DNA of 64,000 bases from Selaginella moellendorffii. Taxonomy: Eukaryota; Plantae; Lycopodiophyta. Below are positions 41,255-63,376 of the stretch, in pieces (position 1 is the stretch's first letter; each line of letters opens with the position of its first letter). Position numbers and translations under genes: made by a program. The stretch spans positions 2,375,245-2,439,244 of the forward strand of contig NW_003314271.1 of NCBI RefSeq assembly GCF_000143415.4, given 5' to 3'. The notes beneath the pieces are model-generated. The model was not told the DNA's origin. It ran no database searches and was given only the letters and a program-made list of their open reading frames with translations.

Positions 41255-41356
41255 TTTCTCTCCCCCCTCTCTCAGGAACCCTAAAGAGATATCCCATTTA
41301 TCTCTGACGAACCCTAAAAGATATGAGTGAGAATTAGGGTTCTTGGGAGTGGAGCA
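41255..41356. promoter_or_regulatory. 102-bp bidirectional promoter CCDC124/CWC22 with three telo-box cores
   Basis: AACCCTAA at 41277 and 41310, TTAGGGTT at 41334. Confidence 0.6.
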
Positions 41357-43853
41357 ATGGCTGCGGCAGTGGCGGTACCGGCATCTGACAGGTATGGTGG
41401 CGATCTAAACCATGGCGCCAGAGAGGAGCGCAGGGAAGACTATGATGAGCGCCGCAGCAAACGCAAGGGCCGTGATGAAGATGGAGACAGAGGTGGGAGA
41501 TCGAGCGATCAAGATAAGAGGCGCCGCGACGACGCCAGGGACGAAGATCGCTGGCGGGGGCGAGACGAAGATGCTAGCAGACGGGAAGATTCTAGCAGGC
41601 GAGGGCGAGACGAAGATTCTAGCAGAAGGGGGCGAGACGAGGATTCTAGCAGAAGGGGGCGAGACGAAGATGCTAGCAAGCGGCGAGATGACGATGCCAA
41701 AGAGGAGAAGATTGTGCTTCCTGCGGGAAGGAGTGGAGGGACATATATTCCTCCTTTCAAGCTCGCCCAGATGATGAGGGATGTGAAAGACAAGACGAGC
41801 GTGGAGTACCAGAGGATGGCCTGGGATGCTCTGCGCAAGAGTATCAATGGTCTCGTGAACAAGGTGAACACTTCCAACATCCGGAACATCCTCAAGGAGC
41901 TCATTGCTGAGAACTTGATCCGGGGGAGAGGATTGTTTGCGAGATCGTGCATGAAGTCGCAGATGGCCTCGCCTGCTTTCACGCACGTGTTTGCCGGCCT
42001 TGTTGCTGTGATCAACACCAAGTTTCCAGCTCTTGGAGGATTGCTGCTGACAAGAATCATCCTACAGTTTCGCAGGGCCTTCAAAAGAAATGACAAGGTA
42101 ATGGTGTTTGTTCTTCTCTCTTTATTCTGCTGAGCTTGGTTTTTCTTTCCTTTATTTCCAGCCCGTTTTACTCGCAGTGACAAAGTTCCTGGCGCATCTT
42201 GTTAATCAACGAGTTGCTCATGAAGTGATTGCACTTGAGTTGCTAATGCTCCTGCTGGAAAATCCTACAGATGATAGTATAGAGGTAAGAGTATGGAATT
42301 TTGGCGATCCTTGGTACCAATATGCATTGTCCATTTAGGTGGCTGTTGGATTTCTCAAGGAGTGTGGAGCGTATTTGCTGGAGATTTCTCCCAAGTGCTT
42401 TCAGAGTATGTTTTTCGTGTGGACATTATTTTAAATCATCTGACGCTTTTCTGGCAGTGATTTTCGATCGGTTCCGAGCTGTTCTTCACGAGGGAGAGAT
42501 CGACAAACGTGTTCAATTCATGATCGAGGGAGTTTTTGCTTTACGAAAATCGAACTTTCAGGTATGAACTTGTTCTGTCTTTCAATGTTTCAGACTCAAA
42601 TTGTCATGGTCTGCGCAGGGACATCCAGCAATAATCTCAGAATTGGATCTTGTTGAAGAAGGTGACCAGGAAACACATCAGATTTCCCTTCTAGACAAGG
42701 ACCTGGATCCAGAAAGTCGCCTTGGTAAGTCCAAAAAGCGTACCTGATCTTATCTCACGTTTCTCGTGCTTCCAGACATCTTTGCTCCGGATCCTGATTA
42801 CTTGGAGAATGAGAAGAAATACGAGACCATTAAGAACAGCATTCTCGGTGACGAAAAAGAGGAAAAGGATGGGTCAGCCTCTGGTTCCGAAGAGGAGGAC
42901 GATGAAGACGAGGGCGAAGAAGAAGAAGATGAAGATGATCCTTCGCAGAGCATCCAAGACCTCACAGAAACAAACTTGGTGAACCTCAGGCGTACCATAT
43001 ATCTAACGATCATGTCAAGTGTCGATTTTGAAGAGGCTGGCCATAAGCTTTTAAAGATAAAGCTGGAACCAGGCCAAGAGGTATGTTCCTTCTTTTCTTT
43101 CAATATTTGTGGCTAATGATCCTACACGTCTCTGCAGAAAGAACTGTGTATCATGCTTTTAGAATGCTGCAGCCAAGAACGGACGTACCTGAGATACTAT
43201 GGGCTTTTGGGCCAGCGATTTTGCATGATCAACCAAGTGTTCCAGCAACATTTTGACGAGTGCTTCCTCGGCCAGTACACAACAATACACAGGCTAGAAA
43301 CGAACAAGCTCAGGAACGTGGCCAAGTTCTTTGCGCATTTGCTAGGGACGGACGCTCTTCCATGGACAACTCTCGAGTACATCAACTTGACCGAGGAGGC
43401 GACGACATCATCGTCTCGTATCTTCATCAAGATCCTGTTCCAGGTATGAGCTTTTACATTTTGGTTTCTCGTTTGCTCACTTTTCTCTCTTTTCAGGAGC
43501 TTTCGGAGCATCTGGGACTGCAAAAGCTGAACGAACGCCTCACAGACCCAGACGAGCAGATGCAGAGAAACGTGGGCGGCATCTTCCCGCGGGACAACCC
43601 GAAGAACACACGCTTCGCCATCAACTTCTTCACTTCCATCGGTCTGGGTGGTCTCACGGACAGCTTGCGAGAGTACCTCAAAAACATGCCCCGGTTCATC
43701 ATGGAGCAGCAAAAGCCGGTGGAGAGCAGCGACGACGAAAGCTCAGACAGCGAGAGCTCGTCGTCGGAACCATCATCTTCGTCTTCAAGCGAATCCGACT
43801 CCGACTCCGACAGCAGCAGCGACGAGAGGAGTAAAAAGAGGAGGAAGAAGTAG
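41357..43853 (+). CDS. CWC22: Pre-mRNA splicing factor CWC22 (MIF4G + MA3), multi-exon
   Basis: [45 protein letters not shown]; [21 protein letters not shown]; [10 protein letters not shown]; [14 protein letters not shown]; [18 protein letters not shown]. Confidence 0.95.
41555..41690 (+). repeat. 27-bp coding tandem repeats (RRGRDEDSS) in the CWC22 N-terminus
   Basis: GGGCGAGACGA(A/G)GA(T/TG)CTAGCAG-type units. Confidence 0.8.
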
Positions 43854-47560: not shown

Positions 47561-50539
47561 TTTCCAAGTACTTTTGATGAGTACAATATTATAAATGAAC
47601 AGAACAAAAAAAAGAGAAGAAAATACCTTTTGGCTAATCAAAACATAGTTCCACTTATCAGAATGAGGACTATATGTGATATAAAAAAAATTGTAAGTGT
47701 AAAATTTACATCAGGTGCTAGAGAGGAATAAAAAGGTAGTAGTTATCTACAAGATAGCTTGGTGGACGGCCTTTTAAATTTTAGTGTAGTATTGCTATGT
47801 TGTTGCACCTTGAACAAAAAAGATAATTCAAAAGATAATTCTCTAGTGCAATTGGAATCTCAGCTAAATAATCATCATAATTCATTCAAGTAACATGGTA
47901 TCAAAGCAAGGATCCAACTAGCCAACCTAGGGCTAGGGATTTATATAATTTTCAATCATTTTATTTATGTCCAAGTGACTATGTTATCACCCTTGTGGAC
48001 ACTTTGTGATCTTGTTATGATGAAGATTTTTTAGGGTGGATGTGATAGCCTTTGTCTAGTTGAAGTGACTACTAGTGCTCATACTTTGGGACATGTTCAT
48101 GTATATCATCATTCTTTTGTAAGCTCTTGAATTTCGACTTCTCAAGAGGTTATTTAACCCATGGTATTATTATAAACTTTATGCCTCACTAGAGCTATTA
48201 CTTGCAGCTTCTAGAAACCATTGACACTATATCATGTTTGCCTTCCTAATGCATATATATGGATGGGGATACCAACCTTGCTAATGCCAGCTTCAAAAGT
48301 TTTGGATCAGAAAAAATGCATTTCATAATTTGTGAACACTTGAGTCATGTAAGACCACATAGTATTGGATGATGGCATATCAAAATATACCTTCCAAATT
48401 GAATTTGCATAACCTTTTAAAAATCCTAAAATAGGATTTTTAGGAATACAATTGGATGTGTCCTAGAGCTAGGAGTTGCCAATCCATGGCAATGATAGAG
48501 AGAATATTGTCACAATTCATACAAAAAGTTAAATATGAACTAGCCATCATTGCAACTTTCAATCCAATAACTGGGAGAATTAGAGAGGCTAAGTATAGTC
48601 TATAAATAAGCTTTTTGATGTTAGGGTTTTATTTTTGGGGAAGCGCTAGTGTTGAGTGTGGCTTTGTATGTGCTCTCTTTGATTGCAACATGATTTTTTA
48701 TATAGCTATGTTATGGTGTGTGCCTCTGCTAAGTGGATTCCCTATTTAATTGGTAGTTCATCCACACTTGATCAAATGCAAAAAACCTAATTAATCTCTG
48801 CATCTATATGTACAATTCAAGCTGAGAAAGAAGAGTTATAGGAAACTCATTATTATTGTGGCTTTTATACCACTTGTTTTTCCCTAACCTTGACCACGAT
48901 AGTAAGGAGATGATATGGTTGTAAGCAACCCAAGAGAATGATTTAAGAGACAATTTATAAATTTCAAATATAGAGAGAAAAGGGCCATAAATAATAGTGC
49001 ATCCTTTTTTCTAATCAATTAAGGGTTTTAAAATATTTGGGATTAAATGTCCTTGGGTTTATATTGGGATAGGTGACTTCTCGGGAAGTCCAAAATCAAA
49101 AAATTACAGTGGTAAGGAGCTAAGTTTCTAGATGGGGCATAAGAATAAGAATGGAGTGATCAAAAAGGTTCTATAGTGTTGGTGGAGTGTTCACACTTGG
49201 GATCATGAATCATTTTGGTTAAAGTTTTAATATATTAACCACCTATTAATCTAAGCCCTTAATCTTTGAAGTGTTGATATATTAGCCATTTATCTAACAC
49301 TATTTTTATTGCACAATCTCATTGGTACTTATTTATCTTTCTTATCATAATGAATATGGAAACTTCAGATAATTTGAAATTGCTACACTAACATAATGAA
49401 GTCATGGTTGAAGAGCTTTATATTCATAGATCTTTTGAGATTGTGAACTATTGGATGTGAACTAGTGTAGCGCACCTTATCTTTCTCCCCTTAAGCCAAC
49501 TGGAAAAGGGGCAATTGCTTAATGAGAAAGCCCTTAGTGGCTATTTTATCCCCATTTATCCCCCAAGGTTCCAAGGATCCACGGTGATAGTATATCTAAA
49601 TCTCATCCCATGATCACATGCGCTACACTCATTGTAGCACACTTTATTTCTCTCCCCTTAAGCCAACTGGAAAAGGGGCAATTGCTTAATGAGAGAGCCC
49701 TTAATGGCCATTTTATCCCCCAAGGTTCCAAGGATCTCACTTTATCTTTGTCTTTTTGCACCGGATCATAACATTGGTATTAGAGGAGTGGTTGCGATGG
49801 CCGACCAAGCTAAATGCTGGAATCCTATTGTCGATGGTGGTGCCGACGAAGCTGTGGAGATTTGGACCATTCAAGATGTGGTTCATGAGCTGCGAGCCCT
49901 TAATAAAAATCAGCAAGAGATGCAAGACGAGATGCATGGCATGATGGATACCATGCGTGGGCGTGTTGAGGCACTCGAGGTTGGACGGGGTAGCACTTCA
50001 AGTAAGCCTTCTTTGGTAGATCGACTCAAGATTCCAACTTTTTCCGGTGATGGTGGTGTGGACGAGTGTCTCGCTTGGCTAGCCAATGTGAAGAAGTTTT
50101 TGGCTACTAGAGGAACTCCAGATGCAAAGGCTTTAGTGGCTATTCCGATGGTTTTGCGTGATGCGGGTCTTCGATGGTGGAATTGGCTTGAGGAGTCCCG
50201 TGTTGCGGATAAGAAACCACCAGTGTCTACCATGGATGAATTTGAGGCTGCTTTTCGTTTACGTTTTGCCCCTCATTAAGATGTGGAGAATGCTCGTACG
50301 GAACTTTGACATTTCCAGCAAGGGAAAATGACTCTCCGGGACTATATTGAGAAGCTTACTCGCTTGATTAGTCGTGTTCCAACGAAGGATCCAGATCAAA
50401 ACAAGTCCTACTTCATTGATGGCTGTAAGGAACCGACTCCCCGAGATGTCGTAGGCTAAAGGATCCCCAAAAGCTTGACCGAAGTGACAAAGAGTTCATC
50501 GGATGGGACCAAGTCGAGGATCAAGTCCAAGACCGACTC

Positions 50540-50785
50540 TAGGACCGAGTTCGAGATAGAGTCCGGAATCGAATCCGAGACCGACTCGGGGACCGAGTTC
50601 GAGTCCGAGTTCGAGACCGAGTTCGAGACGGAGTCCGGATCCGAAATCGGGTCCGAGACCGAGTCCGAGGTCGAGTCCGAGGTCGGGTCCGAGATCGGGT
50701 CCGAGATCGAGTCCGTGATCGAGTCCGAACCCGAATCCGAAGTCGGATCCGAAATCGGGTCCGAGATCGAGCCAGAGACTAAGTC
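50540..50785 (+). repeat. CpG-rich hexamer tandem array in the LTR (also at 56922-57167)
   Basis: TCCGAG/ACCGAG/TTCGAG/ATCGGG/GTCGAG units with period 6. Confidence 0.9.
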
Positions 50786-51629
50786 CAAATACTAATACGG
50801 GTCAAGGGGTGAAAGCCCAAAGCGTGCGTCTCCCAGGGGGGGGGGGCTGCAGGGGGTTCCAAAAGTATAGTAGGGATAGTGAGGTCCAGGAACCAGTTTA
50901 GAAGGGACTCTCCAGTTGGGCTTCCAAACCGACTTGAGGTTGGGACTGGGACCGAGGGGCCTTGGGTGGGAGTGAGCATGGACTTGGCTGGTGCCGGAGG
51001 GGCCATCCAAGGAAGTGCTCAAGAGCAGCTCCCACTCCCGAAAGGGAAACCGATTGCGGTGCTCCCGGCTCAGGTGGAGTGGTGCCCCACTTGAGTACCT
51101 TGTGGCTCATTGGTCCTCGCCCTTCCGGGGGCTTGGGCCTTTCCTTCGGGATGGAAGAGGGGGGGTAGAGGTACCCATACCGGGCCGTTAGGCCACGGTG
51201 TTTCACCCCGACGTCCCGAAGCAAGTGCTGCACCCAAGGCTTGGGATTTAGAGGGTCCCATGATCAAGCCTTGTGATACCTTGGGGTGTTAGGAATCTGG
51301 AGGCTTGGTGTGCTTGGCTGCTTGTGCCTGCGGGGAGTGTAGCCGAACCTTAAGTCCAGTCTAACCCGGGGAGGGGGATTGGGAGAGATTTGGGAATCCG
51401 TAGATGGATGGCTAACACTCCGTTGCTCGTGCAGTAAGTAGTTGAAACCAAGTAGGAGCTGGCACCAAAGGCGAGAACCTTGGCGAGGGAACTTAGCACA
51501 AGCCAAGGCGGAGTTGGTCGGATAGGCGAGGTAAGCTGGCAAATTGGAAAGGAAAAATTTGTGGCTTACAATTTGGTATCGGAGCCTTCTCCTCAGTTCT
51601 AGCGAAGGATAGAGGCGGATTGCTGGGAG

Positions 51630-54600
51630 ATGGCAAGGGCAGGGCGTAAGCGAACCCAGGCGGAGACAGAACCTCCGCCAGAGCTGGAGCCTCCGGTCGA
51701 ACAAGAGGCTATGGATGAGGAATCCTTGCATGAGGAGGACTCTAGTGAGGAAACTTCCAAACAGGAGTCCGGTGGCGAGGTTCGGTCGTCCAAGGCTCGA
51801 TTGGACGTTCTAGAAGGTCAATTGGCGCAGACCAATGCCCTGCTGGAGACTCTCGTACGCAAGCTAAAGCGTGACGAGAAACGGAAGAAAAGGCGAAAGA
51901 CTGCGGATGCTGGCAGCGCAGAAGGTGCGGACCCTTCGGCAGGGACTGAGGCAAAACCAGACAAGGTCGAACAGACCGAAGTGGAATCAGTCCCTCAGGC
52001 AGTTCCCAAGTACAAACCAAAGCCCCCACCGGTGTTCAAGGGAGTGAACGACTATAAGGTTGTGGAGGATTGGTTTTACGATATGGAGGACTACTTCCGA
52101 GCGTTACGGTTACCGAGCTCGGAGAAGGTCCCATGTGCAAAACCATACTTGGCAGATAATGCCAAGTCTTGGTGGAGAACAACGGAGGCCAACGAAGGAC
52201 CGGTGGCCACCTGGGACATGATGAAGGCGAGGATCCGCGCGACATACGTTCCTCCGAATGCCACTCTGCATCTGAGAGATGAGCTGAGTAGGCTGAAGCA
52301 GACTGGAACCATCCAGGAATATGTGAATGGGTTCATGGCAAAGAGGATACTTGTCACGGACATGGGGGATATGGATGCGTTCCATGCCTTTATATCAGGT
52401 TTGCAAACCTGGGCTCGCGGTGAGGTGATGCGCTGGAACCCGACCAACTACAAGGAAGCGTTGGATGCGGCCATCAAGGTGCATTTCAACGATAACCTGC
52501 GAAAGGGGAACACGACGGGGTCGGGATCCACATTTCACAAAGGGGCCAAACCGAGGGGAACATATAGCAGGGGGAAATTCAAGAAGAGTTTCTCTAAGAA
52601 TGAGTCCTCGGGATTTCGGAAAGGCAAATCCGGTGGCCAGCGAGCAAGTACGTGGGGGAGTCAAGCGAAAAGAGACAAACCCACGGATAAGAAGGTCAAG
52701 TCATATAGCAGCGTGGGAAACAACGTATGCTATAACTGCGGTGAAGCGGGACACTTTTCAAGGGAATGTCCCTACCCGAAGAAGGCCAGAGCCAATATGG
52801 CCATCAAGTCGGGCGAAGTCCAAAATGAGGTATGTGATCCAGTCCCTAACTCAAAGTTACTCATTACACGAGCAACTTTGGTAGAGAGTCGTTCGCGACA
52901 TCTACTAGCCCTCCGAGGGAAGCTCGGAGGTAGCTTTGTTAAGATCCTTATTGACACGGGTGCTTCGGATAATTTTGTGGCTGCAGACATAGTCCGGCAA
53001 GCCGGACTAACGGTGCAGCGGCTAGGCGAACCAAGGACTATAGAGTTTGTTCAAGGTAGCCAAAGCACCGATGAGGTACTTCGACAAGCGAAAGTCGAAG
53101 TAGGGACTTGGAAGGTAGACATGGATTTCACCGTGTTGGACATGGCGGGATTTGACGTGATCTTCGGAATGGATTGGTTCAATCGGTTCGTGGTAGCCCT
53201 ACATGGACAAGGTAGGAACCTTGTGGTACTGGCGAATGCCCAAGGAAGAAGATCTAGGGTGGAAGCCCAGGATCTAAAGGTAGGGCAAAGCAAGGCCAAA
53301 GAATCCTGCTTAAACCTGGTGTCCACGAGAGGACAACTCACTAAAGGAACTAAGGCAGCCTTTTTGTGCTTACTCTCGGTGAAGAGTGACAAAAAGACAA
53401 GAACGGAAGAAGTGCCTTTAGTGATCCAGCGGGTGTTGGACCAATTCCAGGATACCATGCCGGAGGAGCTACCGGCGGGGCTGCCCCCAGCACGACCGAT
53501 AGAACATAAGATTGAGCTGGTCGAGGGTGCTGAGGCAGTGGTTCGTCCCCCTTATCGTTTGAACGAAAAAGAACTCAAGGAGCTCAAGTGCCAACTAGAG
53601 GAGTTGGTGGACAAAGGGTATGTTAGGTTGAGCAAGTCGCCGTATGGGGCGCCGGTGTTATTTGTGAAAAAGAAAGATGGATCTATGCGCATGTGCATAG
53701 ACTACCGCTTGCTCAACAAGTATACAAAGAAGAACAAGTACCCTTTGCCAAGGATTGAGGACCTGTTCGATAGGTTGGGAAAGGCAAAATACTTCTCGAG
53801 GATTGACCTAAGGTCAGGATACTACCAGATCAGGGTAGCCGAGGAAGATGTCGAGAAGACAACCTGTCGAACGAGGTATGGGAGCTTTGAGTTTCTGGTG
53901 ATGCCCTTCGGGCTATGTAATGCGCCGGCAACGTTTTCGGCGCTAATGAACCACGTCTTTGTACCCTATTTGGATCGCTTCGTGGTCGTCTATATCGACG
54001 ACATCCTGATCTATAGCGAGACGCTAGAAGAGCATGCCGAACACTTGGCGAAGGTGTTTGAGAAACTAAGGGAACACAAGCTGTATGCTAAAGAGAGCAA
54101 ATGTGACTTTGCTCAACAAGAGGTAAAGTTTCTCGGGCATGTGGTGGGCCAGGACGGGCTCAAGGTGGACCCGGAGAAGGTCCAAGCGATCCAGGAATGG
54201 GAGCGACCATCGAATGTACATGAGTTGAGGGCGTTCCTGGGGCTATGCAACTACTATCGAAAGTTTATCAGACACTATTCGAGAGTAGCCCTGCCCTTAA
54301 CGGACCAAACAGGAAAAGGGAAGATGGTATGGACAGCAGAATGCGAGGCGGCATTCGTCCACCTCAAAGGGAAGTTGAGGAAGGCTCCCGTATTGGCATT
54401 GCCAGACTTTGGTAAGGACTTTGAGGTAGAAACGGATGCTTCGGACTTTGCGTTGGGCGCAGTTCTGAAGCAAGACAACCATCCGGTAGCGTTCTTCTCG
54501 AAGAAGCTGGACAAGGCTCAACGGAAGTGGCCTGCCCATGAGAAAGAATTGTTTGCGGTGGTCAAGGCACTCAAGGAGTGGCGACACTACCTTGGGAGAC

Positions 54601-56397
54601 ACTTCAAGGTTTACACGGACAATGTGGCGACGAAACACTTCTTGTCACAGCCCGACCTAAGAGGGAAACAAGGTCGGTGGGCCAATGCCTTGGCCGAGTT
54701 TGATTGCGAAATTCTGTACAAGCCTGGGAAGAGCAACATCGTGGCGGATGCGCTAAGTCGAAAAGCGAGCTTGAAGTTGGCAATATCCAGCGCAACAGCA
54801 ACCTTCTGGGACGATGTGCGGACAGCATATGAGAACGATGGTCTAGCACAAGAAGTGTTGCTGAGGAATCTAGAGGCGCGGGAAGCTCACCAGAGAGGTG
54901 AGCTGCCAACGGAAGAGAAAACGGGCTATGCGGAACGCAACGGACTCATTTATTACAAGCAAACGAGGGTGTATGTTCCAGAAGGGGAACTAAGGAAGGT
55001 GGCCTTAGAAGAGTGTCATGACGGACCTCTTGCGGGACACGGCGGAGTGCCCAAGACGATGGGCTTACTCAAGAGGAAGTACCATTGGCCAGATATGGCT
55101 AAGGACGTCCAAGACTATGTAAAGACATGTCCAACATGTCAGCAGGTCAAAGCCGTGACTAAGGCTAGTGGGGGCTTGTTGCAAAGCATCCCAATTCCAG
55201 ATCGCCCGTGGAAATGTCTTACGATGGACTTCATCACGGGACTACCCCCAAGCGAGGGGTTTGATGCGATATTCGTGGTGGTGGACCGATTTTCAAAGAT
55301 GGCACATTTCATACCCACCACAACGGACGTGGATGCGGAAGGTGTGGCGAAGCTGTTCTTTGAACAAGTGGTTCGAGTGCGGGGAAGGCCGGAAGAGATT
55401 ATCTCAGATCGAGATAAGATCTTCACTAGTAGGTTCTGGAGGACACTCCTAGAACAGTATCGCACCAAATTGAAATTCAGCACAGCCTATCACCCACAGA
55501 CAGGTAATGGGTATTAAGTCAAGATTGATGGCACTAACACTTCTTGACAGACGGACAAACGGAAAGGGTGAATAGGCAGCTGGAGGATTATTTGCAATGC
55601 TATGTCTCGGGAGACCAGACCGACTGGGTAAGTCATTTGGGACTTGCGGAAATGTGTTATAACAACTCACCACACTCAAGCATCGGGGTGAGTCCATGGG
55701 AAGTCATCAATGGGCGAGCTATTGAAGGTCCTGTGGAACTCGGCGTGGCCGAGTATCATGGAGAGTTACCCGCAGTGGAGGCATTCACGGCGGAAAGACT
55801 CAACATTTGGAATCTAGTGAGGGATTCCTTGGAACGGGCTCAACAAAGGCAAACTAAGTACGCGAACCAAAAGCGTCGGGATGTGGAGTTCCAAGCTGGG
55901 GAGAAGGTGTGGCTGAACACCAAGAACCTCAGACTACCAAGCTGGATCAGCCGAAAGTTGACCCAAAGGTAAAGACGCATGTATTCCTGTAAATGAATTG
56001 ATCTTGAGTTCCTTAAGCAGGTTCGCGGGGCCTTATGAAATTGAGGCACGAATCGGTAAAGTGGCTTACCGACTCCGACTTCCTCGAGAGATGGGGAAGA
56101 TGCACCCAGTGTTCCACGTGAACTTACTCAAGCCGTACTTTGAGGATCCGCTTCGCAAGGACCAAGTAAGACCTTTACCTGAGGTTATCCAAGGGGAAGA
56201 GGAATACGAAGTCGAGGCCATCCTCAATGCGCGCAAGAGCAAGCGACAAGGACGCGAGGTGAGAGAGTTCCATGTGAAGTGGAAAGGATTTCCACACTGC
56301 GAAGCAACATGGGAACCGGAGGAGAACCTAGCGAACGCACGAGATCTAGTGGAGGAATTTCTGCATGGCAGAACTCTATGTACTTATGCAAAGTTCA
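51630..56397 (+). CDS. Gag-Pol polyprotein (Gag, CCHC, protease, RT, RNase H, integrase, chromodomain); predicted exons 51630-55503, 55551-55968, 56021->56397 (gap)
   Basis: [47 protein letters not shown], chromodomain [25 protein letters not shown]; removing two GT-AG segments restores a single frame. Confidence 0.9.
55504..55550 (+). other. Predicted spliceosomal intron 1 in integrase (47 nt, phase 1)
   Basis: CAG|GTAATG...CACTAAC...TTGACAG|AC; removal gives [12 protein letters not shown]. Confidence 0.85.
55969..56020 (+). other. Predicted spliceosomal intron 2 in integrase C-terminal region (52 nt, phase 2)
   Basis: AAG|GTAAAG...TTAAGCAG|GTT; removal gives KLTQRFAGPY. Confidence 0.85.
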
Positions 56398-59300
56398 NNN
56401 NNNNNNNNNNNNNNNNNNNNNNNNNNNNNNNNNNNNNNNNNNNNNNNNNNNNNNNNNNNNNNNNNNNNNNNNNNNNNNNNNNNNNNNNNNNNNNNNNNNN
56501 NNNNNNNNNNNNNNNNNNNNNNNNNNNNNNNNNNNNNNNNNNNNNNNNNNNNNNNNNNNNNNNNNNNNNNNNNNNNNNNNNNNAGTAAAGCAAGGCTATC
56601 CAAGGGGAAGAGGAATACGAAGTCGAGGCCATCGTCAATGCGCGCAAGAGCAAGCGACAAGGACGCGAGGTGAGAGAGTCCATGTGAAGTGGAAAGGATT
56701 TCCACACTGCGAAGCAACATGGGAACCGGAGACATGGACAACAAGTCGTAGGATAAAACGAGACGTTCGATGTGGGCATCGAACTTCTTCTATGGGTGGT
56801 GGAGTTGTAAGGAACCGACTCCCCGAGATGTCGTAGGCTAAAGGATCCCCAAAAGCTTGACCGAAGTGACAAAGAGTTCATCGGATGGGACCAAGTCGAG
56901 GATCAAGTCCAAGACCGACTCTAGGACCGAGTTCGAGATAGAGTCCGGAATCGAATCCGAGACCGACTCGGGGACCGAGTTCGAGTCCGAGTTCGAGACC
57001 GAGTTCGAGACGGAGTCCGGATCCGAAATCGGGTCCGAGACCGAGTCCGAGGTCGAGTCCGAGGTCGGGTCCGAGATCGGGTCCGAGATCGAGTCCGTGA
57101 TCGAGTCCGAACCCGAATCCGAAGTCGGATCCGAAATCGGGTCCGAGATCGAGCCAGAGACTAAGTCCAAATACTAATACGGGTCAAGGGGTGAAAGCCC
57201 AAAGCGTGCGTCTCCCAGGGGGGGGGGGCTGCAGGGGGTTCCAAAAGTATAGTAGGGATAGTGAGGTCCAGGAACCAGTTTAGAAGGGACTCTCCAGTTG
57301 GGCTTCCAAACCGACTTGAGGTTGGGACTGGGACCGAGGGGCCTTGGGTGGGAGTGAGCATGGACTTGGCTGGTGCCGGAGGGGCCATCCAAGGAAGTGC
57401 TCAAGAGCAGCTCCCACTCCCGAAAGGGAAACCGATTGCGGTGCTCCCGGCTCAGGTGGAGTGGTGCCCCACTTGAGTACCTTGTGGCTCATTGGTCCTC
57501 GCCCTTCCGGGGGCTTGGGCCTTTCCTTCGGGATGGAAGAGGGGGGGTAGAGGTACCCATACCGGGCCGTTAGGCCACGGTGTTTCGCCCCGACGTCCCG
57601 AAGCAAGTGCTGCACCCAAGGCTTGGGATTTAGAGGGTCCCATGATCAAGCCTTGTGATACCTTGGGGTGTTAGGAATCTGGAGGCTTGGTGTGCTTGGC
57701 TGCTTGTGCCTGCGGGGAGTGTAGCCGAACCTTAAGTCCAGTCTAACCCGGGGAGGGGGATTGGGAGAGATTTGGGAATCCGTAGATGGATGGCTAACAC
57801 TCCGTTGCTCGTGCAGTAAGTAGTTGAAACCAAGTAGGAGCTGGCACCAAAGGCGAGAACCTTGGCGAGGGAACTTAGCACAAGCCAAGGCGGAGTTGGT
57901 CGGATAGGCGAGGTAAGCTGGCAAATTGGAAAGGAAAAATTTGTGGCTTACAATGGCCTACATAGTGAGAGTATGCGGCAACACTTGCGTCATTCTTAGC
58001 CTACAAAGAGTTTGGAGGAGCTCTTTGATGCAGCTCATCAACTTGACAATGACAAGCACAAGTCTTGCAAGCGTTTGCGGAGTCCTTCTGTCAAGAATTG
58101 TCGTGATGATCGCCGTGGACACAAGGATGGGAACAAGGATCACAAGTTGAAGTCAGTGGTGACTACTTCAGATGCAAAGGGGTCCAAGAAGCAGAAGTTC
58201 TTTGTGAAGAATTATAGAGAGGGTTGTCATCATTGTGGCGAACTTGGACACTACAAGGCTGATTGTCTGCAGTTGAAAAACAAGCAGCAGGACAAGAAGA
58301 ATGGCCAATCTTCTTCTCACGGTAAGTCAGATGCTAAAAAGTTGCAAACTTTGCAGCGTGAGGATGAGGAGAATGATCATTCCGGTTGGAGGAAGCGCCT
58401 TTCGATCGTTGCTCGTCAGCTCAACTATGTGTGGAACAAGACGGAGCTCGAGGATATGCGTGAATCAGCTTTAATGCTGGAGGGCGTGTTCTGTAGCGAT
58501 CCAGTGCGGATTTTACTGGATAGTGGGAGTGATGACAACTTTGTTTCGGCAAAGTTTGTTGTGGAGCATGGCCTGGTCACACGCGGCGTTCTTCCATACA
58601 CAGTGGAAGGTGCAGCTACCTCTACTCAGCATTTCGATGCTTGTGTCGAGGGGCTGGAAGTGTTGGTTGGCAAAACCACACTTCTGGAGACTTTTTATCT
58701 CGCGGATATCCATCATGTGGATCTCATTCTTGGGATGCCATGGTTGGTGAAGGTGGATCCAAAGATAAAGTGGAGTATTAAGCGTATCTCGCTGGAGTAT
58801 GGTGGCGTTAAAGATGTGTGGTTTGGCGAGGGTGTTCAACCACCAGTTGTTATGCTCTCTGCTACATCTTTGAAGCGGGCTTGTCGTAATGGAAAAGCAC
58901 TTTCGAGTTTCTTGCTGTTTGTTCGTGACTTGGGGGACCAAGGCACGTGTGGGGGAGAAGCAGCAGTACGGGATGTACTAGATGAGTTTTCTGATGTTTT
59001 TCCATCTGAACTTCCTCATAGATTGCCTCCGTTATGAGGTGTGGAGCATGGGATTACATTGGAGCCGGGGACACGACCAATTTACCAGCGTCCATTTCGG
59101 TTAAGTTATGCAAAGGAGCAAGAAGTTCAACGACAAGTCAAGGAGTTACTTGACTTTGGATTTATTCAGCCAAGTAAGTCTCCATTTGGTGCTCCGGTCT
59201 TGCTTGTGAAGAAGAAGGATGGTTCAATGCGAATGTGTATTGACTACCGCGCTTTGAACAAGAAGACAGTGAAGGATAAGATGCCGATGCCACGTGTGGA

Positions 59301-62082
59301 TGATATCTTGGACAAGCTTGGTGAAACACGAGTGTTTACCAAGATTGATATGAGGAGTGGATATCATCAGATTGCAATAGATGATGCATCTATCTCCAAG
59401 ATGGCATTCAACACAAGCTTCGGACATTTTGAGTTTACAGTTATGCCGTTTGGTTTGACGAATGCACCGGCCACATTTACTCGGTTGATGACGGAGGTAT
59501 TTGGGCGTTATCTTCATGAGTTTGTGGAGATTTTCTTAGACGATATTCTTGTTTTTAGCAAGAATATGGAGGAGCATAGGGTGCATTTGCGCAAGGTTCT
59601 TTTGTTACTTCGAGATAGCAAACTTTATGCAAAGAAGAGCAAATGTGAATTTGCAAAGTTGGAGGTGGAATATCTAGGCCATATTGTGACCTCTCAGGGT
59701 GTCAAGACGGATCCAAGGAAGGTGGCTGTGGTGGAAAACTAGCCTACACCGACTACAGTGGCCGAGTTGCACAGTTTTCTTGGTATGGCTAGTTACTACC
59801 GACGTTTCCAGCATAAGTTTGCAGAGGTGGCTATTCCTTTGACGCAGTTGTTACGCAAGAATATGCCATTCGAGTGGAAGAAGCCACAAGAGGAGAGTTT
59901 TATGGCACTGAAACGATTGTTGAGCGAGACTCTAGTGCTTTGCATTGCTGATCCATCGAAACCTTACGAGGTGACATGCGATGCGAGTGGTTATGCATTG
60001 GGAGGAGTTCTCATGCAAGAGGGACAGCCTATTGCATATGAGAGTCGAACTTTGAATTCTGCAGAGCAACGCTATTCCACATATGAGCAAGAGTTACTCT
60101 CTATTGTTCATGCTTTGCGGACGTGGCGGCACTATCTTTATGGTGCAGTGTTCGTGGTGTTGACAGATCACAAACCACTTGTGTATCTTTTCACATAGAA
60201 GGAGTTGAACACTAGGCAAGCTCGTTGGATGGTCAAACTCATGGAGTTTGGGGAGTTTCCTATTAAGCATCGTCCGGGAAAATCAAATGTGGTGGCAAAT
60301 GCTTTATCTTGTGTTTGTCATGTGACGACGTTACGAACACGATTTTGTCATCATTTGAGTAAGGTGGTCAGCGAGTTTGGGCAGTTGGTTGAGCATGCTC
60401 AGGCTCAGGATGCTGAGGTGGCCTCTTTGTGAGACCAGATGGAAGCCCCTTTCTCATTGGTGGATGGGATTCTCTCCTACAATGGCCGTGTATATTTGCC
60501 ACGGGTGGATGCGTTAATTACTCAAGTTTTATTCCACTATCATGATCGTCCAGAGGCCGGTCATTTTGGGGGGAAGAAGACGTATAAGTTGATTAAGCGC
60601 AACTTTTATTGGAGGAATATGAAGGCTAATATCCTCAAGTATTGTAAATCATGTGAGCTTTGTTAGCGGGTTAAGGTGCCACGAGAGAAGCCGGGGGGAC
60701 TTTTGCAACTTTTACCTATTCCTCAGAGCCGTTGGTGTAGTATCTCTATGGACTTCATCACTTGTTTGCCACGAACACAGAGGCAAAAGGAGCAAGTATG
60801 GGTCATAGTGGATCGGTTGACGAAGTATGTGCGGTTGTTGGCTCTTCGGAAGACTGTCACTGCCTCAGACTTGGTTGCGGTTTACTTGGAGAAGGTTTTT
60901 CCTGACTTTGGTTTGCCGGAGGACATCATTAGTGATCGAGATTCAAAGTTCACCAATGGATTTTGGAAAAGCTTTGCAAAGGCTATGCAAGTGACTTTGA
61001 AACTCTCGAGTGGAGATCATCCTCAGACGGATGGGTAAACTGAGCGTGTGAATCAGGTGGTGGAGGATATGTTACGTTGTAGCATTGGTCAAAGGCAAGG
61101 ATAGTGGGATTTATATCTTCCGTTGGTGCAATTTGCTTACAACAATAGCCAACATAGTGGAACCAAGCTAAGTCCTTACTTTGCCATGTTTGGAAGGCAT
61201 CCTTGAATAGCGGTGGAGTTGAGTTTGCATTTGAGTAAGGACGTTCAAGATAAGCTTGATTCCGAGGCTACTGATTTGGCCACAGAACTTGATGAGATTT
61301 TGGTGGTGTGCAAACGGAATTTGCAAGCAGCTTAGGATAGAGCGGAGAAGTTTACCAATGAGCATCTCCAATTCCGGGAATATAAGGTGGGTGATCTCGT
61401 CTTTGTGCGAGTGATCTTTCCGTCAAGTGAGCGGCAGAACACCTTGGTGCCTTTACGGACAGGGAAGAGTGATAAACTTTCCCATCGATATACTGGTCCA
61501 TATGAAGTGCTGGAGTGCATTGGTAAAGCGGCTTATCAGGTGCGGCTGTCAGCTGGGGTGAAAATTCATCCAGTATTTTATGTCAGCCAGTTGAAAGGTA
61601 TACTATCTCGGAGTGATGGGCCCAGTGCCTCCTTGATGTACACGGCTGTGGAAGATGGACCAGGAGCTTGAGCAGGGTTCCCCAGAAAGGGTGATCACTG
61701 GTACAACTCGTCCTTGGGACAAGGACTTTGTTGGGGGGGAAGAATTGTTAGGCACCAGCTTTGACTACGTGGTCAATGTCGGTCAAAGGGAGGCCCAATG
61801 GTATATTAAGGCATGTTAGGGTAAGGGACTTAACCTACCCTAGGGCTTACAGTGGAGCGGCGGTGTAGTGGAGCTTTTGAGGTAGCTCGGGGGTGGTTGG
61901 GTGGTGAGGAACCTCAAGAGGTGGCGTAGCATAGTCTAGGGCGACTAGATCTTTGTCTTTTTGCGCCGGATCATAACATTTAAGATAAGGAAAGGGCCCT
62001 ACAATCAAGTGATCACCCCTTTAGCCAGTTGGCTTAGGGTGTAAGGGATAAGATCCTAACATCTTATGGAGCGGCGGCGCAG

Positions 62083-62339
62083 TGGAGCTTGAGCAGGGTT
62101 CCCTAGAAAGGGTGATCACCAGTACAACTCGTCCTTGGGACAAGGACTTTGTTGGGGGGGAAGAATTGTTAGGCGCCAACTTTGACTATGTGGTCAACAT
62201 TAGTCAAAGGGAGGCTCAAGGGTATATTAAGGCATGTTAGGGTAAGGGACTTAACCTACCCTAGGGCTCACAGTGGAGTGGCGGTGCAGTGGAGCTTTTG
62301 AGGTAGCTTGGGGGTGGTTGGATGGTGAGGAACCTCAAG
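62083..62339 (+). repeat. Direct duplication of 61662-61918 (pol end, PPT and LTR start of the old Gypsy)
   Basis: GGAGCTTGAGCAGGGTTCCC...GAGGAACCTCAAG present twice with scattered transitions. Confidence 0.85.
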
Positions 62340-63376
62340 GGGATGCGCTACACTCACTATAGCACACTTTATCTCTCTCCCCTTAAGCCAATTGGAAAAG
62401 AGGCAATTGCTTGATGAGAGAGCCCTTAGTGGCTATTTTATCCCTATTTATCCCCCAAGGTTCGAAGGATCCACAGTGACAGTATATCCAAATCTCCCCT
62501 TCAGAGATGTCAATGTCCTTATTGACTATTGACTAAGAACCCCTACTGAGCCAAGGGGAATCAGCACCTCCATTTCTGCACTGAATCTACCAATCCTTCC
62601 ATTGTGTAGACTAGCATCTATGGATACTCCACATAAGAGGAAGGACATATGTATGGATGCACAATACGTACGATTTCAAATTTAGGGGTAGGAATATACC
62701 TTGCTCAAGGGTATATTATATTTTTAAGTAGCCAGTAATCAATGGGAATTAAACCTGTACTATTTTCTCTGATACCAACTGTAGCGCACCTTATCTCTCT
62801 CCCCTTAAGCCAACTGGAAAAGGGGCAATTGCTTGATGAGAGAGCTTTTAGTGGCTATTTTATCCCCATTTATCCCCCAAGGTTCCAAGGATCCACGGTG
62901 ACAGTATATCCAAATCTCATCCCATGATCACATGCGCTACAACTAGTATAATATGGTCATGGCTAAAGAGCTGTGAGTGTAGAATAATTGTAATGTTGTG
63001 GTGAGACAAATTGTATATACACACTAGAAGACTTAAAATGAACATACTATGAAACCTATAGATAAAAGGAAAAATGAAAGGGTATGGACAATGAAGTAAG
63101 AGCCTTCTCTAAAAAATCATTAACTTCAATATAGAGTATCAGATAGCATAAAGAATGCAATAAGCATTTAAAGAAATATTAAATCTAAACAAGATCATAA
63201 TAATAGAAAATTAGAGTTGAAAAAAATCAAAATTAAATCTAAAGAAAAAGAAAGAATAGATAGCATATACAAAATGGAGAATACTACTGAAAATCATTCT
63301 AATTCTGGAAAAATAAATAATTCATTATATTATAAATAAGTAATAATAAGAATTCTAAACAATATTGAAAATTATA

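Follow-up and report, generated by a model that had tools for sequence, protein, structure and literature searches.

Loss of an intron upon transposition was the founding test for retrotransposons. How could an LTR retrotransposon keep spliceosomal introns within its own coding region and still spread? The question is raised by a locus of the lycophyte Selaginella moellendorffii that lies in a stretch of 64,000 nt (contig NW_003314271.1, assembly GCF_000143415.4, positions 2,375,245 to 2,439,244 of the forward strand), referred to below in its whole length as the window. A preliminary description, made from the letters alone, proposed that a recently inserted chromovirus carries two introns inside its integrase and that their splicing acts as an integrase switch. 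The presence of two introns in the integrase of a young S. moellendorffii chromovirus is confirmed here, and the interpretation attached to them is supported in part.

Structure and age of the element

The window contains a complete Ty3/gypsy element of 7529 bp, an assembly gap included, at 50424-57952 (Table 1). It has LTRs bounded by TG and CA, a PBS that we take to be of the tRNA-Met type, a polypurine-tract-like (PPT-like) stretch and a 5-bp TSD, and its Pfam matches follow the order Gag-PR-RT-RH-IN of Ty3/gypsy chromoviruses. As had been noted, the LTRs are nearly identical (1 of 1147 bases different) and the TSD ATGGC is intact on both sides, which indicates recent retrotransposition; the single LTR difference gives an insertion age of ~34,000 years, a rough value obtained with a borrowed rate of 1.3e-8. 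Within each LTR (50500-50780 and 56880-57160) a long array of diverged 12-bp units is found together with a G11 tract.

The ORF that opens at ATG 51630 extends for 3885 nt (1295 aa) and, as described, stops just after the conserved HPQT, its C-terminus being HPQTGNGY. Two residues of the catalytic DDE triad, D1200 and D1260, are encoded in exon 1 and the Glu, 36 residues after D1260, in exon 2, so that the unspliced reading yields an integrase without the DDE glutamate, as predicted. Exon 2 matches residues 1269-1388 of Ty3 Gag-Pol (7q5b, E 2e-4) and exon 3 matches SH3_Tf2-1 and Chromo, the PF00385 chromodomain (E 2e-16) being joined to the integrase solely via splicing. Both exons are open, and the catalytic and cage residues are kept. 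The stop of exon 3 falls a few bases inside the gap as judged by the loose ends of contigs (56392), and the same ends show the gap to start with AT-rich sequence holding TAA and AATTAAA, with TGTA at 56379. Such motifs are found in plant poly(A) regions, and the AT-rich gap start may be a candidate early poly(A) region. An AT-rich insert seems to separate two chromodomain copies, and an older 3′ end may follow the duplicate at 56593-56731. The Gag N-terminus has a Lys/Arg-rich basic patch (residues 77-90, encoded at 51858-51899), which we take to resemble a nuclear localisation signal.

An older Gypsy element holds the young copy within its gag and is not only a neighbour as first described; the accompanying statement that the older element has no insertion at either intron site (~61018-61053 and ~61470-61503) holds. 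The repeats at 49451-49719 and 61663-62941 resemble rearranged LTR fragments.

Table 1. Features of the young chromovirus and of the element that surrounds it (positions in the window)
Feature	Position	Strand	Remarks
TSD, left	50419..50423	+	ATGGC, 5 bp
5′ LTR	50424..51570	+	1147 nt, TG..CA, 12-bp tandem units, G11 tract at 50836
PBS	51574..51586	+	13 nt, tRNA-Met type (PMC3350952)
Exon 1	51630..55503	+	Gag, CCHC, protease, RT, RNase H, integrase zinc finger, D1200, D1260
Intron 1	55504..55550	+	47 nt, GT-AG, contains the stop of the 1295-aa ORF
Exon 2	55551..55968	+	Remaining integrase core with catalytic Glu, plus linker
Intron 2	55969..56020	+	52 nt, GT-AG
Exon 3	56021..56397	+	GPY/F (SH3-like) module, group I chromodomain
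Assembly gap	56398..56583		186 N
Chromodomain duplicate	56593..56731	+	Partial, frameshifted, copy of 56182-56321
Polypurine-tract-like stretch	56794..56804	+	Upstream of 3′ LTR
3′ LTR	56806..57952	+	1147 nt
TSD, right	57953..57957	+	ATGGC
Older Gypsy	49740..61980	+	Stop-riddled, gag split by the young element; ends approximate

Sequence features of the two introns

The preliminary description assigned to the two segments the coordinates of Table 1, lengths of 47 and 52 nt and GT-AG ends, all of which can be read from the sequence, and to the first a CACTAAC branch point. In intron 1 a branch-like CTAAC lies at 55534 and an in-frame TAA at 55515-55517; intron 2 has TTGAT at 55998 and a TAA at 55970-55972, and is placed in an AG/GT site. 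Direct repeats of 5 nt (intron 1) and 4 nt (intron 2) are present at the intron ends, and these short repeats would fit insertion at a staggered break. Both segments have the properties of U2 introns, with GT..AG ends, a branch-like motif, host-like size and an AT content of 62-63% against 49% in the element exons. The six introns read by eye in part of a host gene (42098-43137) all measure 51-64 nt with 55-64% AT, in agreement with the claimed match to host intron size, intron 1 being 4 nt below the shortest of the six. The first intron of this host gene (41354-43853), whose product presumably resembles the splicing factor CWC22, shares its starting seven bases with element intron 1.

Removal of the two segments restores one frame, as had been proposed, with exon 2 starting as GQTERVN behind a split Asp codon and exon 3 as FAGPY behind a split Arg codon. 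Without intron 1, the distance from HPQT to KLTQ is 139 codons, the commonest spacing in relatives, and it is 135-144 in 32 of the 38 relatives that have both junction motifs among 199 fetched proteins. Of the 199, 151 have the first junction motif without interruption, and 39 matched the second, which was sought with a strict pattern. As a crude bound, the chance is 5e-4 that two random insertions could each be read as GT..AG while keeping the register.

Frameshifting is unable to bypass intron 1 since stops within it close the exon-2 frame; at intron 2 the exon-3 frame is open, yet splicing explains the contigs described below. The lack of stops in that frame (55962-56020) is probably due to chance. 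Hairpins within the introns as packaging or regulatory signals were rejected, as folding is no better than that of shuffled sequences for the introns themselves (z -1.26 for intron 1 and 0.70 for intron 2) or with their flanks (z -1.30 and 0.63), in a test in which two of four host control introns were off by one base. When introner-type copies were sought, a 23-nt part of intron 1 was found once within the 64-kb window.

Identity with SM1-Galahad

The young element agrees in size, LTR, PBS and 1295-aa ORF with SM1-Galahad, a family known from the same host (Novikov 2012, PMC3350952), and is taken to be a member of it. As for the host, a VQ protein encoded in the window falls into a 90% cluster with two named S. 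moellendorffii proteins, in 1 of 4 look-ups. Statements on the literature here and below refer to the available parts of the cited papers. SM1-Galahad is described as ~7.5 kb long with LTRs of 1076/1146 bp, a poly-G tract of 11-25 bp, a 13-bp tRNA-Met PBS and a group I chromodomain, and as present in hundreds of copies at 95% identity among which no intact copy was found. The window copy, compared by description, has 7529 bp with the gap, LTRs of 1147, a G11 tract and a 13-nt PBS. In the published consensus, a 3885-bp ORF (1295 aa) that lacks a chromodomain is followed by ORFs of 316 and 309 bp, and these downstream parts were read as separate ORFs (PMC3350952). Counted from ATG 55652, exon 2 of the window copy has 318 nt, 2 nt apart from the 316 printed, and exon 3 counted from ATG 56091 has 309 nt with the stop taken from loose contig ends, equal to the 309 printed. 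This match indicates that the SM1-Galahad consensus holds both introns, unrecognised; "intron" and "splic" each have a count of 0 in the body of PMC3350952 as available. Whereas the family was published as lacking an intact copy, the two ORFs are here the second and third exons of a single gene that is spliced, and the window copy is therefore intact. The family itself is thus known, and what is new is an unrecognised, RNA-supported, family-wide intron pair in its integrase.

The sister family SM2-Galahad is intact, exists in hundreds of copies in the same genome and has one unbroken Gag-Pol ORF of 1577 aa that includes the chromodomain (PMC3350952). It shares the domain order of the window element but differs by this unbroken ORF, and so has no such introns; its LTR measures 919 against 1147 in the window element. 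Placement in the Galadriel/Galahad clade follows PMC3350952. SM-Tcn1 and SM-Fogey were rejected as identities since their size does not fit.

In other species, two sequence searches returned no relative above 54% identity; a search with exon 2 gave no close relative, and none was found in viral contigs. Among 11 metagenome loci, one (L005) alone spans the second intron site, with no intron there, and the other 10 are short weak matches. L001-L004 (2412-2665), and similarly L006-L010, hold short integrase-like matches on opposite strands in a back-to-back arrangement, like fold-back remnants. The available parts of PMC9804982, PMC2442089, PMC13547354 and PMC12130899 contain nothing on the young element.

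Retention of the introns across the family

Contigs from 4 of 24 listed runs were compared with positions 53000-56395, one run being probable DNA (X1) and three probable RNA (X3 and X4 from one study, X6 from another), with the RNA or DNA kind of each taken from a tool's guess. X1 has 43,212 contigs on this segment, with summed depths of 949,098 and 861,234 in the intron bins and a range of 754,407-1,295,329 over all bins, and intron 2 is covered by 52-60 contigs. None of the best 15 of 55 joints in X1 lies at an intron. The lowest depth among these 15 is 147, compared with 108-156 for single-copy-like contigs, so that a multi-copy intronless class should have appeared and one intronless copy could be hidden, in a survey of contigs that drop rare variants. 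The data support the intron-bearing form as the family norm; together with the published consensus, this upholds the earlier view that the intron-containing form transposed. That the segments are copy-specific disabling insertions or an assembly artefact has next to no probability. The element does span an assembly gap, but many genomic contigs cover the introns, exact skips of both are found in two runs, and the ORF of the published consensus ends with the same stop (PMC3350952), which refutes this reading.

Among the best 40 of 416 differences on this segment, 38 are coding and 32 silent, where random transitions would be silent in ~35%; the interior of intron 2 holds two, and no splice dinucleotide is affected. 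Of the 10 differences among these 40 that lie behind the intron-1 stop, 7 are silent (P = 0.02, for 10 sites only, from a list ranked by support), and such mostly silent change suggests that exons 2-3 are translated in the copies that spread. Of 407 variant places in X1 on the same segment, 300 show C>T or G>A, the changes to be expected where repeat copies are methylated.

Splicing in assembled RNA

In X3, the 2500-nt record 10 covers 53751-55498, 55546-55966 and 56019-56349 with contiguous record coordinates, and record 14 of X4 has the same two skips. The skips of 47 and 52 nt correspond to both introns, shifted along the junction repeats. Exact removal of both introns is therefore found in 2 of the 3 probable RNA runs, in contigs from one study, and bears out the claim that these are real spliceosomal introns. 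The junctions put forward for checking, 55503^55551 and 55968^56021, are both present in X3 and X4, but X6 keeps intron 1, its record 22 being a 614-nt contig (55365-55978) that runs unspliced into intron 2. The spliced form is the only form assembled in X3 and X4, so spliced RNA hardly has the look of a minor isoform. The intron-1-only isoform proposed in the preliminary description did not appear, as no contig with intron 1 removed and intron 2 kept is among the 26 pieces listed of ~43,300.

X3, X4 and X6 agree with the window copy at most of the listed places at which its letter departs from the DNA majority, which points to the same young sub-lineage and, in the case of X6, fits RNA better than stray DNA. 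X6 also shares the rare letters at 54342 and 55241 with X3 and X4. The spliced contigs end at 56349 and 56359; the unspliced run continues beyond 56392 into AT-rich sequence. Both spliced contigs run without a break through 45 31-mers that are found again in the duplicate behind the gap. RNA ends, strand and levels cannot be read from contigs, so the hint of an early end is weak; X4 and X6 also break elsewhere, and the expressed locus may lack the chromodomain duplicate.

A probable life cycle with two RNAs and its alternatives

A life cycle based on two RNAs is the probable explanation, in which unspliced RNA would serve as the genome for reverse transcription and working chromo-integrase would come from doubly spliced RNA alone. 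Transposition of intron-bearing copies implies that unspliced RNA acts as the template, in support of what the preliminary description had required. Translation of the unspliced RNA would also give Gag-PR-RT-RH with a truncated integrase that lacks the catalytic Glu, and translation of the doubly spliced RNA a product of about 1557 aa with the full chromo-integrase, if the stop lies in the gap. Because both introns are inside the integrase, only integrase depends on splicing, and production from spliced RNA only would keep its amount below that of Gag and RT. The introns were presumably gained in the SM1-Galahad lineage after its split from SM2-Galahad. Unspliced RNA with an early stop should face nonsense-mediated decay, which counts against this model, as does the assembly of the spliced form only in X3 and X4, and both spliced runs come from one study.

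The spliced RNA would have to be withheld from reverse transcription. Tentatively, the likeliest way is a link between splicing and polyadenylation at an early site right after the chromodomain stop; a spliced RNA that ends there would lack PPT and R and could not be reverse transcribed. A preference of Gag for its own unspliced RNA is about as likely, and retroviral Gag selects unspliced RNA in the nucleus. A fuller scheme that combines a short, spliced, integrase-competent mRNA lacking PPT and R, an unspliced genome made by read-through and a possible role of intron 2 in choosing chromatin targeting is doubtful as a whole.

Other readings of the same data have been considered. Splicing could be a regulated switch with three states, tuned by host or element, that yields no integrase, an untargeted core or a chromodomain-targeted integrase. 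Retention of intron 2 ends the protein at the TAA at 55970, before GPY/F and the chromodomain, and the assembled form differs between runs; in favour of such a switch, loss of the chromodomain makes Tf1 integrase more active but less specific, and MAGGY depends on its chromodomain (PMC3350952). This reading is nevertheless unlikely given that no contig lacking intron 1 and keeping intron 2 is listed (26 of ~43,300 pieces), that the form retaining intron 2 loses the GPY/F module beyond the chromodomain, and that the introns fold no better than shuffles (z -1.26 and 0.70). It is quite improbable that one or a few intronless master copies give integrase in trans and account for the "spliced" contigs, with the intron-bearing copies as passengers. 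The letters of X3 and X4 are found at about single-copy DNA depth (107.7 at 55787; 237 in two contigs at 55241), which traces them to one or few loci, and a single-copy joint could sit among the 40 of 55 joints outside the best 15. However, a copy with exact GT-AG deletions would itself derive from spliced RNA, and many intronless progeny would be expected, with no multi-copy joint seen among the best 15 of 55. Furthermore, no intact single-ORF copy was reported in the available part of Novikov 2012 (PMC3350952), and X6 keeps intron 1 yet shares the rare letters 54342 and 55241 with X3 and X4.

Slighter still is the probability that SM1-Galahad is parasitic on SM2-Galahad or another chromovirus for integrase, with its own gene disabled and splicing incidental. 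The intact sister is at hand in hundreds of copies in the same genome (PMC3350952), but exons 2-3 are open with catalytic and cage residues kept and 7 of 10 changes silent, the LTR lengths of the two families differ (1147 vs 919), and exact splicing of two independent insertions would be an unlikely accident (5e-4 bound).

Relation to other elements with introns

The two-RNA life cycle has a close precedent in Ogre, a Ty3/gypsy element of the Tat group that keeps a sense-strand spliceosomal intron and splices it in a subset of transcripts (PMC6317226, PMC4408406, PMC12786077). The Ogre intron is single, has an average length of 274 bp and lies between Gag-PR and RT, and its removal is needed for the whole polyprotein (PMC6317226, PMC4408406). 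Both Ogre and SM1-Galahad therefore keep through retrotransposition an intron whose removal full Pol requires; the principle is thus not new here, and the preliminary description understated this use of splicing in Ogre. SM1-Galahad is unlike Ogre in having two host-sized introns within the integrase, one of which cuts the DDE triad. The Tat lineage of Ogre is marked by an extra RNase H. The young element is not itself an Ogre, with its open frame from Gag to integrase and its chromodomain, and works partly like one.

In EVADE/COPIA93 and the plant Ty1/copia elements that use shGAG, two RNAs are made, the unspliced one being full length; Gag is the sole product of the spliced RNA, all of Pol comes from the unspliced RNA, and splicing is tied to premature termination (PMC5580714). 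SM1-Galahad reverses this arrangement for integrase, with the spliced RNA as source, and the premature termination of EVADE provides a model for the hint of an early end. If true, the doubtful short-mRNA scheme, in which introns and a host-type poly(A) site were gained, would mirror what copia elements do with shGAG and offer a natural way to keep introns through hundreds of rounds of reverse transcription. Foamy virus Pol, made from a spliced mRNA, is a parallel. For Arabidopsis Ty3/gypsy elements, the available part of Oberlin et al. 2017 (PMC5580714) reports that no conserved splicing was found. Tf1 of fission yeast, a single-ORF chromovirus relative, reaches a Gag excess over integrase of 26:1 after translation, by degrading integrase and without introns, where SM1-Galahad would reach low integrase by splicing (PMC7175516). 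Penelope-like elements also keep introns after retrotransposition, for unknown reasons, but are not LTR elements and differ in their mechanism of copying and integration (PMC8557442).

A 2025 review treats plant LTR elements as generally intronless; in its available part, the only exceptions with functional introns that it names are Ogre and EVADE (PMC12786077). The literature searched yielded no report of an LTR element with introns in its integrase, and SM1-Galahad is named there only in PMC3350952; most subscription journals lie outside this literature, and an earlier annotation is possible.

Significance

Two lineage-specific integrase introns with an intronless sister family in the same genome constitute a natural experiment. 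The pair SM1-Galahad and SM2-Galahad bears on how genomic RNA is told from mRNA, and the SM1-Galahad introns bear on integrase dose in single-ORF elements and on intron gain. The record is also corrected for the family itself: SM1-Galahad, published as lacking an intact copy, is intact once spliced, and surveys based on ORFs may accordingly miscall such elements as dead.
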